Shown in pieces: positions 1 to 29,416 of a stretch of 64,000 nt of DNA. The position numbers and the translations under genes are program-made. Position 1 is the stretch's first letter; every line of letters begins with the position of its first letter. The notes under the pieces were generated by a model, which made no database searches, had not been told where the DNA came from, and saw only the letters and a list, made by a program, of their open reading frames with translations. Source of the DNA: Escherichia phage UPWr_E4; the sequence record PP418987.1, one strand, 5' to 3'.

Positions 1-2669
1 GCTTGCCCCCAATTATTAGGGACACGACGAATACCAAGATCGACGGCAGTTACAAACCCTTGATTGGTGATTACACTTTTTCCTTTAATAATTGGATAAT
101 AACAATCCTGTGAAACATAACCATGATCGACGAATAATGGAGCTTCTACTCGCCATTGGTTGCCCCAATCACCCGGTTGTCTAGCAATCCATCCAGAACC
201 GTTAATGTGTACACGATCGCGGTTAACGTTAACCATTGCGATATTTTGTGGATTTAGCGAAATCTCACCATTGTTTGTGATATGTACTGCCGCCTGAGTA
301 GCATAGCTATAAAATGCTAGCGAATTATCAGCACCACCCTTACCAATATACCAGTTACCACTCCCGTCTACGTCACCACGAATATGCAAAGCATTACCAG
401 CAGTTGTTGATAATACAATAGAATCACCCGGACGTTTAATAATCAATCTACCTTCGGATTCAACTTCACCAAAGAATTTAGTTTTAATTGCACCAGTCGC
501 TAAAGTACGTTCAGTGGAAAAATGAACGCCTTTGCTGTCTTCTAACTGAATAATGTTATCGCGCGCATTATTACTATCACCCCAATGGTTAAATTTAAAA
601 TAATCTCGTGATCCTAAACGTCCGGCATCAAAAGTCATCAAGCCTTTTATATTAATATCACCACCAAAAAATGCGGTGAGAGAATCGCGTTTTAATTTTA
701 AAACGTTAGCACCACTAGTACCACCCAAAGTAACATCACCAGTTCTTAATTCATAACGGAAAGGTCTATTTGTATTAAAGTTTCCATCTTGATCATTTTC
801 GTCGGTGGAAAGAATATAAAGACTCTCTCCATCATTACGGAAAATTGTACCAAATTTTCCGCCATACATACGGAATGCATTAGATGAGCGGAATTTAACT
901 TCTGTTTTAAATGTGGTAGTGTTATTAAGGTTAACAGTAGAGTTAAAATTGGTAGGAGCACCGAAGTTAACTGCGCCATTAAAATCTTGTTGAGCTGTCC
1001 ATGTGTGGCGACCATCTTCAAGAACAACACGGCGGACTGTGCAAGTTCTATTTCCAGAATTACCGAACACACGAACGACAAAATAACGGTAGTTTGTCTG
1101 GGATACAGTACCGCGCCAAACCTGAACAGTACGCCCTGTGCTAGTGTGTTCACTAGGACCAACGGAAAACATAACCAGGTTTCCGTCAATCGTCCCCCAA
1201 TCCATATTTGCTGGCATGTTCTTTATTTTGTTCAAAGGAACGCTAAACATACTACCAGGAACAAAATCAAAGGTTTGCCAATCTAACTCCGCTAATTGAG
1301 CTTTAATACCACCCATACCCAAAGTAATTGGAAGAGAATAAATCGTCCCCCAATCCATATTTGCTGGCATGTTCTTTATTTTGTTCAAAGGAACGCTAAA
1401 CATACTACCAGGAACAAAATCAAAGGTTTGCCAATCTAACTCCGCTAATTGAGCTTTAATACCACCCATACCCAAAGTAATTGGAAGAGAATAAGATGTA
1501 TATACTTCGTTCCATGCACCCCACGCACCACCAGTATATGCACGCTCAAAAATACGATCGCGAGTAGTTGCACCCGTTCCGGCAGTAGTAAATTTTTGGA
1601 AAATAGCACCACCAGAAGCACGCTGTTTAACTTCCAGCAAACCAACAATAACAGTCGGCAAACCTTCACCGGTAGGACAGTTAATAACGGCATCAGTGCC
1701 TAAAATATTATATAACCCAGGAGTTTTAAAATCATTCAGATCTCCGTCATAGAAAGTCGCCGGTGTGACATTACCGACTTGTTGCCAAGGTCCCCATTTA
1801 GGCGCAGAAGCATCCCACGCAGCAGTAAGACAACGAGTATAAACAACACCAAATCTGGTCGTATATCTCTGTGTGCGAGAATAGTTTCCACCTTCATATA
1901 CTTCTAAAAGTCCTTGAGCGGACGATCCTTCTTCTGGGAAATTTCTGTCAAAGGTAGCAATGGAACTTGAACTATTTCGCCACAAACCAAAGTGTTCAGC
2001 GCCTCCTAGATCATTAAGATCAATTGTTGTTGACAGTGGACGAGTACCAGATTGAATATTTCGCCACACACTCCACGGACCATTTACTCCGTTCCATGTA
2101 GCAGTCAAGGAACGAATATAAACATTTCCGTATCTAGTTGTATATCTCTGAGTACCAGCAAATTGACCGGCCACAAATACTTCTAGCACACCTACAGCAT
2201 TTTCTTCTGGAAATTTATTTGCTGGTTGAGCGTTGGTTGAAGTTGCTTTCGACCAAACTCCAAGACATTCTTCAACAGGCCCATACGTATCTAAATTAGC
2301 ATCAACAGGTAATTCGCCATTATTTTTTATAAACGTTGTGCTATTGACATTTATGTCAGATGGAGTTAGCGTGATATCTTTTGACCCATCAAAGGATATA
2401 CCATTAATTTTTCGTGCTGTTTTTAATTTCGTTGCAGTTGCAGCGTTACCTGTTAAATTTCCAATTATATTTCCATTAACAGTTAAAGAACCATCAATTG
2501 TTCCTCCATATTTTAAACCTAATTCTATAACACTACCTGAGTCATCTTTTGTGAAAATTGTTTTATCTTTTAAGTTTATAGCCAATTCACCTTCGGCTAA
2601 TACTGAAGCAGCAGGACGTTGACCTGCAGTTTTGCTTCTTTTAAATTGTATTTGTTTTAAAGTAGCCAT
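1..2669 (-). CDS. 37: long tail fibre distal subunit gp37, partial (start codon at 2669, 3' end beyond window start)
   Basis: Minus-strand frame open from ATG (revcomp of 2667-2669) to position 1; N-terminus translates [30 protein letters not shown], recognised as T4 gp37; follows 34-35-36 in order. Confidence 0.9.
1188..1493. repeat. perfect tandem duplication, 2 x 153 bp (1188-1340 and 1341-1493), in frame within gene 37
   Basis: The two 153-nt units are identical at every position when read from the sequence; 153 = 51 codons. Confidence 0.95.
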
Positions 2670-28506: not shown

Positions 28507-28755
28507 ATGATTAAACAATTACAACACGCTCTTGAACTGCAACGAAACGCATGGAATAATGGTCACGAAAACTATGGCGCATCTATTGATGTTGAAGCCG
28601 AAGCTCTTGAAATCCTGCGTTATTTCAAACATCTGAATCCTGCTCAAACTGCATTAGCTGCTGAGCTTCAGGAAAAAGATGAACTTAAATATGCTAAGCC
28701 TCTGGCTTCTGCTGCACGAAAAGCAGTTCGTCACTTTGTGGTAACACTGAAGTAA
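28507..28755 (+). CDS. rIII: lysis inhibition accessory protein rIII
   Basis: 82 aa; MIKQLQHALELQRNAWNNGHENYGA...; size as T4 rIII. Confidence 0.85.
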   Translation: MIKQLQHALELQRNAWNNGHENYGASIDVEAEALEILRYFKHLNPAQTALAAELQEKDELKYAKPLASAARKAVRHFVVTLK

Positions 28756-29153
28756 TTTATTGGAGAGTCACTGCCTTAGTGTGAAGTTAAAACGAGGAGC
28801 CGTCGAACTGTCTGATTAATGATTTGCGAATCATTATAGTTTTAAGACCCCGGCAGTTTTACGGTGTACCTCTTGAATGTTATTCTTATAGCGGCAAGTG
28901 CATGCTACCCCGAGGTGATGGCCAATCGGGAGTACGCCTCAAGGCCTATATATCCATCAGTATATATCTTATCCTCGAGAAATCGAACCCGGAACCTTTA
29001 AGCTAACGGTGTGCAACAGATAAGAGCTATAAGGTATGATGACGGGTTTATGGTTATCCTGGTCGTTAAATATCAAAAAACCTATGTTCCCCTTGAGGGC
29101 TTGCGCAGGCAATGCCAATAAGTCCTGCATTTTCATTTAAAAGAGAATTTATA

Positions 29154-29330
29154 ATGGCAAAACAAGCTAAAGCAAAGAAAGCAGTTGAAAAGAAAGTTGG
29201 TGATTCTAAACGCGCTGGCTACAAGCGTGGGTCGAACTCTCGTATCAATCAAACTGTTGAGAAGATCATGCGCCGAGCACGTGCGGTTCTTCGAGATGAT
29301 GCTTCTCGTTTTGGTAAGCAGAAAGCATAA
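29154..29330 (+). CDS. small lysine/arginine-rich protein (30.9-like), function unknown
   Basis: MAKQAKAKKAVEKKVGDSKRAGYKRG...; ATG at 29154 (the track start 29112 is an extension); followed by a strong terminator. Confidence 0.5.
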   Translation: MAKQAKAKKAVEKKVGDSKRAGYKRGSNSRINQTVEKIMRRARAVLRDDASRFGKQKA

Positions 29331-29335
29331 GTTGA

Positions 29336-29365
29336 GGACTCCTTCGGGAGTCCTTTTTTATTTTC
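29336..29365 (+). terminator. rho-independent terminator
   Basis: ggactcc-ttcg-ggagtcc hairpin followed by ttttttatttt. Confidence 0.7.
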
Positions 29366-29383: not shown

Positions 29384-29416
29384 GTTTACAGTATGGTTCC
29401 TTTGTGATAGTATTAT
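29384..29416 (+). promoter_or_regulatory. early promoter (GTTTACA, 17 nt spacer, TAGTAT)
   Basis: Motifs read directly. Confidence 0.5.

Follow-up and report, generated by a model that had tools for sequence, protein, structure and literature searches.

We analyzed a stretch of 64,000 nucleotides of Escherichia phage UPWr_E4 (PP418987.1), hereafter called the window, which is a segment of a Tequatrovirus (T4-like) genome in the orientation opposite to that of the T4 map. Our subject is the spacer at positions 28756-29153, which has rIII on one side and the homologue of T4 gene 30.9 on the other. Both genes are on the + strand. rIII, which encodes the lysis-inhibition accessory protein, is the open reading frame (ORF) at 28507-28755 (PHROG 1457, E 4.7e-44) and aligns with rIII of four genera. 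The 30.9 homologue, at 29154-29330 with its ATG at 29154, encodes a very basic protein of 58 amino acids (PHROG 1427, of unknown function, E 2e-31). Between them, on the same strand, lies an element of 149 nucleotides (28885-29033), hereafter the core, which is supported by a covariance model (R1), by the junction found in T4 and by covariation. Judged from the comparison of its sequences, the core is a discrete, independently folding RNA domain, and it is very probably a functional structured RNA of a family absent from Rfam. R1 finds a single copy in the window, at 28880-29039, with a score of 194 bits and an E value of 3e-43.

The core is closed by helix P0, in which the 5' strand CUUAUAGC (28885-28892) pairs with GCUAUAAG (29026-29033). 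Three arms follow inside it: the P1-P2 arm (28893-28946), the P3 hairpin (28947-28966) and the P4 arm (28967-29025). P0, P1, P3 and P4 are contiguous, with zero unpaired linker nucleotides, and form a perfect four-way junction. The first arm begins with P1 (GGC, 28893-28895, with GCC, 28944-28946) and continues through a conserved 8 x 6 internal loop, AAGUGCAU (28896-28903) opposite CUCAAG (28938-28943), into P2 (28904-28913 with 28926-28937), which carries two bulges and a 2-bp extension, GG/CC, that closes the six-nucleotide loop L2. L2 (UGAUGG, 28916-28921) is the exact complement of L3 (CCAUCA, 28954-28959), the loop of the 7-bp P3 hairpin (UAUAUAU with GUAUAUA). P4 itself (UCUUAUC, 28967-28973, with GAUAAGA, 29019-29025) bears a sub-junction with P5 (UCGA-GAAA-UCGA, 28975-28986) and probably with P6 (ACCCG, 28987-28991, with CGGUGU, 29007-29012), a candidate helix predicted by energy only. 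The strands GGAMCC, GCUAA and GCAACA (29013-29018) of the P4 arm are invariant. In all, about 50 unpaired positions of the core do not vary: AAGUGCAU and CUCAAG in the P1/P2 internal loop; ACCCGGA, GCUAA and GCAACA around P6; and GCUAACGGUGUGCAACA.

Folding energy by itself is weak evidence for this structure (z = -1.96 for the core alone; for the whole spacer, -1.0 with the + strand and -0.4 with the - strand), and the case for more-than-chance structure is comparative. Two alignments were used: A3, which holds 22 distinct core variants, and A4, which holds 25 variants with their flanks, most of them >90% identical. A by-eye model of P1 to P5 comprises 31 pairs, which are 98.8% paired. Thirteen of them changed on both sides, compared with 2.8±1.3 in shuffled controls (0 of 500 as high) and 0-3 in six controls in which the model was slid. 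When P0 and P6 were added, the resulting 44 pairs were 95.4% paired across the 25 variants and 20 were compensatory, while shuffles gave 9.0±1.4 and again none of 500 was as high. An independent run of RNAalifold returned the same P0-P6 with 17 compensatory pairs and the 2-bp extension of P2 that leaves a loop of 6 nucleotides. Minimum free energy (MFE) or centroid folds of single sequences had the same architecture in the window copy and in the 73%-identical copy of Escherichia phage EcS1.

Compensatory double substitutions were seen in six helices, the closing helix and the loop-loop helix included. The inner five pairs of P0 vary as AU13/GC11/GU1, AU18/UA6/UG1, UA13/AU7 and so on, and the sequence of this helix is unrelated among lineages: CUUAUAGC/GCUAUAAG in the window, UAAAC/GUUUA in Klebsiella phages, ACAC/GUGU in a Karamvirus and CAUAUUAC/GUAGUAUG in EcS1. 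Compensatory changes affect 5 of the 10 pairs of P2, whose GG/CC extension shows GC15/GU10, 3 pairs of P4, and 3 of the 4 pairs of P5 (CG9/UA8/UG8 and others). P3 has pairs that read AU21/UA3/GC1 and CG19/UA6, with a closing U.G23/CG1. The kissing pairing between L2 and L3 is intact in 98.7% of cells (CG15/UA9, GC22/UA2) and occurs in four versions: UGAUGG/CCAUCA, CGAUGG/CCAUCG, CUAUGG/CCAUAG and, in EcS1, a register-shifted CAAUGA/UCAUUG. G.U pairs occupy 40 cells when the + strand is read and 2 when the - strand is read, indicating that the RNA is the + strand, in the sense of the flanking genes. A reading of the window made from sequence alone, without database searches (the sequence-only reading), had offered a structured non-coding RNA as one explanation of the spacer. 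That proposal is strongly supported for the core by the compensatory substitutions, and by-eye covariation extends it to other hairpins described below.

The same comparison argues against a coding function. Indels break every reading frame (+4/-2/+7 in EcS1; -1/-2 in a PS49-like copy), there are no family matches, and the substitutions fit a paired RNA and not codons; protein coding, including a decayed homing-endonuclease gene, was rejected on these grounds, and the suggestion of the sequence-only reading that the spacer might be a decayed insertion is not supported. Its statement that the interval lacks a convincing ORF, by contrast, holds. The TTG-start ORF that it listed (28824-29006) is present and encodes 60 amino acids, and the short one that it gave as 33 codons (29036-29137) exists as 34 codons (29036-29140); the latter is not conserved, since the ORF that begins at the same AUGAUG runs for 3-13 codons in relatives and the products are unrelated. 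Neither ORF has a match in Pfam or PHROG. Setting aside the first ~2.3 kb of the window, the spacer is one of only two stretches of at least 150 nucleotides without an ATG-initiated ORF of at least 60 amino acids. That first part of the window (1-2352) has three such stretches in a crude scan, with a G+C content of 0.40-0.42, and an internal direct repeat gives an identical 34-residue peptide in ORFs 987-1286 and 1296-1439; the region is probably minus-strand tail-fiber coding sequence that runs off the start of the window.

Some GenBank records treat the region differently, as small coding genes or an ordinary intrinsic terminator. OK274152, OL362041, OL964735, PP889492 and OL960580 carry spurious features over the region equivalent to 28756-29153, among them coding sequences named 'lysis inhibition accessory protein', 'protein rIII', 'glycogen branching enzyme' and 'hypothetical protein', and in OL960580 (phage SA21RB) a WebGeSTer 'terminator' is placed on the P2 hairpin. 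These annotations speak for the idea. However, P2 is followed by CCUCAAGGCC and lacks a U tract, a terminator scan found none in the spacer, and the annotated ORFs are unconserved and broken by indels in relatives. We consider an explanation of this kind scarcely credible.

The spacer was also described in the sequence-only reading as richer in G+C than its surroundings. The difference is real but modest: 0.420 compared with a window mean of 0.362, the 94th percentile among windows of the same size. It is due to the core, with a G+C content of 0.47 (98th percentile) compared with 0.39 in the rest of the spacer. The stretch quoted as an example, ccccgaggtgatggccaatcgggagtacgcctcaaggcc, lies at 28909-28947.

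T4 provides a natural allele without the core. The comparison of this interval with T4, which the sequence-only reading had proposed, was informative: the T4 spacer (NC_000866, 130541-130784; unannotated in RefSeq) is 244 bp long, matches the window in two pieces and lacks exactly the cassette closed by P0. The junction in T4 reads ...CTTGAATGT|GAATGATGACGGG... (GAATGT|GAATGATG), where the window has ~150 extra bases. The block missing in T4 (spacer positions 137-271 of the query) is 91-96% identical in T4-like phages of Klebsiella, Enterobacter, Citrobacter, Edwardsiella and Kosakonia, in which the rest of the spacer is not alignable by blastn. Three alleles are thus found at the core site in close relatives: nothing (T4), the core, or a hairpin of ~55 nucleotides (JS98-like phages and others). 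This alternative cassette (..CACGCGUCAGAAAAAGGUUAUCUGUCUAAG..) occupies the same site, ~28882-29035 in window coordinates, in JS98-/VR-like contigs of IMG/VR (L012-L014, L017, L019 and L021), and its loop bears the motif GGUUAUC that also occurs in a neighboring module of the spacer (module C, below).

Yersinia phage PYPS2T and several Escherichia phages have a spacer 100% identical to that of the window. Among 50,697 phage records searched by blastn, 1,010 contain part of it, but only 179 contain at least 80%. The core is carried by ~400 phage records, in single copy and always at the rIII-30.9 locus, and is distributed over at least 8 genera of Tevenvirinae (Tequatro-, Dhaka-, Gapriver-, Jiaoda-, Karam-, Moon-, Kanagawa- and Winklervirus-type), plus EcS1. 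Nearly all of the hosts on record belong to the Enterobacterales; for one Karamvirus record, PS49, the host given is Aeromonas hydrophila. R1 did not match the core-less spacers examined, including those of RB49-like, CC31-like and Aeromonas phages. When 185,579 species genomes and JGI metagenomes were scanned for a pattern, only T4-like contigs had it at the standard spacing; matches at other spacings in metagenome-assembled genomes were high-GC coding DNA and roughly as numerous as chance would predict. In IMG/VR, two scans with degenerate patterns yielded 61 new loci, and screening these with R1 revealed no further member.

Over the 133 nucleotides from P1 to P4 (28893-29025), six lineages share 92-100% identity in the core, with identities of 74-84% in rIII and 69-89% in 30.9. 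In JS98 (a Dhakavirus; L015, IMG/VR 641509422) the values are 100% for the core, 84% for rIII and 69.5% for 30.9; in a Klebsiella phage they are 96%, 76% and 89%; in PEi26, 93%, 75.5% and 79%; and in EcS1, 73%, 75% and 79%. That P0 is free to change while the junction strands are fixed argues for strong purifying selection on the RNA fold. Superimposed on selection, co-infecting phages seem to have passed the cassette to one another laterally, by way of the conserved flanking modules, and the identity of the JS98 core amid diverged flanks suggests a recent transfer of the cassette or the spacer between genera. Such exchange is also what one would expect of an element that acts at the level of DNA, or not at all: a recombination cassette, a target or remnant of a homing endonuclease, or junk without any RNA function. 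The polymorphism of presence, absence and replacement at one site between conserved flanking modules fits this account, as does a core that is identical between lineages with diverged flanks. It is nevertheless very improbable, given the compensatory double substitutions in six helices and the strong strand asymmetry of the G.U pairs, the ~50 unpaired positions that stay invariant while P0 changes freely, the lack of any endonuclease gene or ORF remnant, and the single copy.

Known RNA families gave no counterpart. A search of 1.2 kb around the spacer with all 4227 covariance models of Rfam 15, which include riboswitches, ribozymes, RNase P, tRNA-like and phage motifs, returned no spacer match at E<=10, in answer to the covariance-model search suggested by the sequence-only reading. 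The isolated 163-nucleotide element likewise had no match at E<=10, and no family, group I introns among them, reached the gathering score anywhere in the 64-kb window. ARAGORN found 0 tRNA or transfer-messenger RNA genes in the 64 kb. This result and the G.U strand asymmetry ruled out a tRNA T-arm on the minus strand, which a string like GGUUCGAUU had brought to mind. There was no blastn match in 5,426 E. coli genomes, and k-mer and Smith-Waterman comparisons with E. coli 16S, 23S and 5S rRNA and tRNAs were not significant (p 0.17-0.85). Neither similarity nor complementarity of the element to the rRNA operon was significant, and a resemblance to 16S h26-h27 (GGGAGUACG.., CCGGAGCUAACG) was counted as chance. 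Three further candidates were set aside. For a GNRA tetraloop with an 11-nucleotide receptor, L5 reads GAAA, GUAA, UAAA or UAAU and no receptor was found; a RegB site (GGAG) in P2 is not kept in the Serratia-phage or EcS1 variants; and a PeSL-type mobile regulatory cassette of T4-type phages, which combines an early promoter with a stem-loop, does not fit a spacer without a promoter. The core shares with GOLLD and ROOL that these too are conserved, intricate phage RNAs, but it is much smaller and unrelated in sequence.

A full-text search of the literature found no description of the element. PMC9409239 cites a 2003 study of rIII/30.9 expression (Driukas & Nivinskas, Biologija). Fremin et al. 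2023 (PMC10690425) predicted 10,006 unnamed candidate viral structured RNAs from IMG/VR. The main text of that paper makes no mention of rIII, T4-like phages or Tequatrovirus, and the element may be among its candidates.

We next consider the transcript that would carry the core. No site resembling a sigma-70 or T4-early promoter occurs within 28756-29153. The nearest, of T4-early type (TTTACA..TAGTAT, with TG), is at 29385-29413, downstream of 30.9 and of the terminator that follows it. That terminator, a strong intrinsic one with a + strand hairpin at 29334-29365 (GAGGACUCC-UUCG-GGAGUCCUU and a U tract), closes the rIII-30.9 transcription unit, and the terminator scan found such signals only after 30.9. 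It follows that the spacer lies between the two cistrons of a single rIII-30.9 transcript. Sub-threshold Rfam matches to Atu_C8 and Phe_leader correspond to the same terminator hairpin.

The remainder of the spacer is structured as well. From an alignment of rIII we retrieved 39 rIII loci from IMG/VR, which gave 37 distinct spacers of 123-419 nucleotides. These spacers are mosaics of hairpin modules whose presence and order differ among genera. In T4-type phages, the region between rIII and 30.9 is a conserved series of hairpins even where the core is absent (28756-28884 and 29034-29153 in the window), with their order shuffled between genera. Module A (28794-28872, + strand; MFE fold) is a long irregular stem-loop (GAGG...CCUC, AGCCGU/ACGGU, AACUGUC/GGCAGUU) that is also present in T4. 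Its apical hairpin, UAAUGAUU-UGCG-AAUCAUUA (28817-28836), is the one that the sequence-only reading had picked out by eye, at 28816-28836. By eye, module A has a compensatory change from GCCGUC..ACGG to GCCAUC..AUGG in two of the IMG/VR loci (L009/L010).

Module C (29036-29071, + strand), the hairpin AUGAUGACG-GGUUUAUGGUUAUCC-UGGUCGUUAAAU, overlaps the 34-codon ORF and occurs once in the window. As a unit with AUGAUG on its 5' side, the loop GGUUAUC and CGUUAAAU on its 3' side, it recurs across genera in varying places relative to the core, and its stems covary (GAC/GUC, GUGG/CCAC, GUCGUAG/CUAGAC). Pairing of its loop with the start region of 30.9 was tried and rejected as inconsistent among genera. 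Module D, found in all genera including T4, consists of a small hairpin, CCCCUUGAGGG with CUUGCG (29086-29105, + strand), and a second one, GCAGG...CCUGC, that is followed by a U-rich tract (29105-29128, + strand). Here too there is covariation (CCCUUCGAGGG, CCUCUUAGAGG; GCAGG/CCUGC versus ACUGG/CCAGU versus GGGAGC/GCUCCC). A long-range pairing of CCUCAAGG in the core with CCUUGAGG in module D lacked covariation and was dropped.

The last element before 30.9 (29130-29153, + strand) is a putative translation-initiation hairpin in which UUUUC (29130-29134) is predicted to pair with a Shine-Dalgarno (SD)-like GAGAA (29143-29147). In other genera the strands read UCUCC/GGAAGA, a covariation that preserves sequestration of the SD. 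The spacer is thus plausibly a regulatory region, the leader of 30.9 with a terminal SD-sequestering hairpin, and the rIII-30.9 leader is clearly built for translational control. The translational operators of T4 (the gene 32 pseudoknot, the gene 43 hairpin and the RegA sites) are likewise leader structures that control a downstream cistron. Those operators, however, are short and bound by known proteins, whereas the core is a 149-nucleotide autonomous fold absent from T4. The product of 30.9 has no match in Pfam, NCBIfam or PDB; it is rich in Lys and Arg and is kept across Tevenvirinae. Its composition would suit an RNA-binding protein, and with the gene lying directly behind a structured leader, autoregulation is conceivable.

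Complex invariant folds in 5' leaders are usually partner-binding modules that act in cis. Because of this, and because the leader is built for translational control, we tentatively propose that the core is a cis-acting, partner-binding module on the rIII-30.9 mRNA, either riboswitch-like or protein-binding. The core would be carried on the rIII-to-30.9 message and would fold co-transcriptionally, with P0 insulating it from the adjacent hairpins. The loop-loop contact, together with the invariant internal loop and junction strands, would then form a surface or pocket to which a partner, be it a small molecule, a protein or another RNA, binds specifically. Its occupancy would alter the fate of the mRNA by changing how the 30.9 cistron downstream, or rIII upstream, is translated or how stable it is.

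Two properties expected of a riboswitch are present: a conserved fold supported by covariation, and a constant position between rIII and 30.9 in all genera examined, where, however, synteny is conserved anyway. The lysine and purine riboswitch aptamers are similar in design, with a closing helix, a multi-way junction and two adjacent arms joined by a Watson-Crick loop-loop helix. Like the core, they have an internal loop in the longer arm and many invariant unpaired nucleotides, and they are located in the 5' leader of a particular gene. In contrast to these aptamers, the core has a linker-free four-way junction, no expression platform that could be linked to its closing helix and no similarity to them in sequence or by covariance model, and it is optional in close relatives.

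Several observations weigh against a cis-acting module. No expression platform can be linked to P0: the sequence that follows it is module C or module D depending on the lineage, no conserved alternative pairing was found for its 3' strand, and the SD-sequestering hairpin is at least 100 nucleotides away. The core is 5' or 3' of modules C and D depending on the genus, and these variable neighbors suggest a self-contained unit, not a single integrated switch. Without the core, T4 and many relatives keep the same 30.9 protein and leader, which indicates that the core is dispensable for basic control of 30.9. Other points concern the structure itself. P1 varies only from C-G to U.G and P6 is invariant across the 25 variants, so that both lack compensatory support, and the diversity of sequence is limited to those 25 mostly similar variants. 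Finally, the kissing arms are very unequal, ~16 bp plus an internal loop versus 7 bp, and the L2-L3 pairing could accordingly be intermolecular and form dimers.

Some of these same features would suit a different mode of action, in which the core is cut from the rIII-30.9 transcript as a stable RNA and acts in trans or as a decoy, binding or sequestering a host or phage factor. The stable RNAs of T4 are likewise released from polycistronic precursors. A fold that is autonomous, insulated and closed by its own helix, a variable place among the spacer modules and the failure to link an expression platform to P0 are in keeping with such an RNA. So are its behavior as an optional cassette, the complete identity with JS98 between flanks of 84% and 69.5%, which fits exchange as a unit, and its restriction to phages mainly of Enterobacterales hosts (with the Aeromonas record of PS49). 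Against it, the core has no promoter or terminator of its own and no recognizable processing signals, and its invariant strands have no complementary, antisense-type target elsewhere in the 64-kb window. Taking both sides together, we judge a processed trans-acting RNA unlikely. If it were one, docking to the tRNA elbow through a double T-loop-like module would be one possibility, and formation of dimers or multimers through the L2/L3 loops, for which the unequal kissing arms leave room, would be another.

The thought of tRNA docking comes from a resemblance to RNase P RNA. In bacterial RNase P RNA, J11/12 and J12/13 form an interleaved T-loop module that docks the tRNA elbow. The invariant GCUAACG and GUGCAACAGA of the core resemble J11/12 (GGUAACG) and J12/13 (GUGCAACAGAGA) of the E. 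coli RNA, and in both molecules these are invariant unpaired strands that flank a helix. The two RNAs share one 10-mer and 12 7-mers, compared with 3.1 expected (8 of 2000 shuffles). However, the local alignment is not significant, as 42 of 500 shuffles score as well, R1 gives no match to E. coli rnpB, and the Rfam RNase P models give none to the element. In the core, moreover, the strands are a hairpin loop and a junction strand, compared with two strands flanking P12 in the specificity domain, and the context of P4, CR-I and CR-V is lacking. The likeness was noticed post hoc, and we regard it as a lead, not a finding.

The architecture also brings to mind a catalytic RNA. A new class of self-cleaving ribozyme would cut the rIII-30.9 transcript and thereby separate or destabilize the cistrons. 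The core is compact and built around a perfect four-way junction; one arm has a conserved internal loop that lies next to the conserved junction of another arm, and the contact between the loops would stabilize the fold. The natural hairpin and hammerhead ribozymes follow the same design principles. Self-cleavage would also agree with the large number of unpaired nucleotides that never vary and with the patchy, optional presence of the core between phage genes, a distribution typical of small ribozymes. A close parallel is the natural hairpin ribozyme, in which a perfect four-way junction likewise joins arms with conserved internal loops that could dock side by side, and which is likewise sporadic in small mobile or viral genomes. 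Unlike it, the core does not match the Rfam model, has unrelated loops, is ~3x larger and contains a kissing loop and a sub-junction. None of the known ribozyme covariance models matched even at E<=10, no candidate cleavage site could be identified, and at 149 nucleotides the core exceeds most self-cleaving classes. We therefore regard self-cleavage as quite improbable.

A broader proposal, somewhat unlikely in our estimation, is that the core is the founding member of a new functional class of RNA specific to enterobacterial T4-type phages, be it a riboswitch or ribozyme, an RNA that docks to host tRNA or another host machine by T-loop strands like those of RNase P, or one that assembles with itself by means of the complementary 6-nucleotide loops. 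If the exotic docking or self-assembly were true, the element would be an accessory RNA, possibly with a role in counter-defense, that moves between phages as a cassette.

The combination of a linker-free four-way junction, a covarying 6-bp loop-loop contact and ~50 invariant unpaired nucleotides is a hallmark of riboswitch aptamers, ribozymes and ribonucleoprotein scaffolds. T-even phages are among the best-studied genomes, yet this RNA escaped notice, most plausibly because T4 lost it. The system is tractable, with natural isogenic alleles that have or lack the element (the window phage or JS98 compared with T4), hosts that are E. coli and its relatives, and a length that suits probing, crystallography or cryo-EM. 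Its partner, once found, could reveal a new regulatory ligand, a catalytic RNA or an RNA-based interaction between host and phage. Such a find would also be a starting point for working out what gene 30.9 does and what purpose is served by the structured rIII-30.9 leader of 244-400 nucleotides that all these phages have in common.

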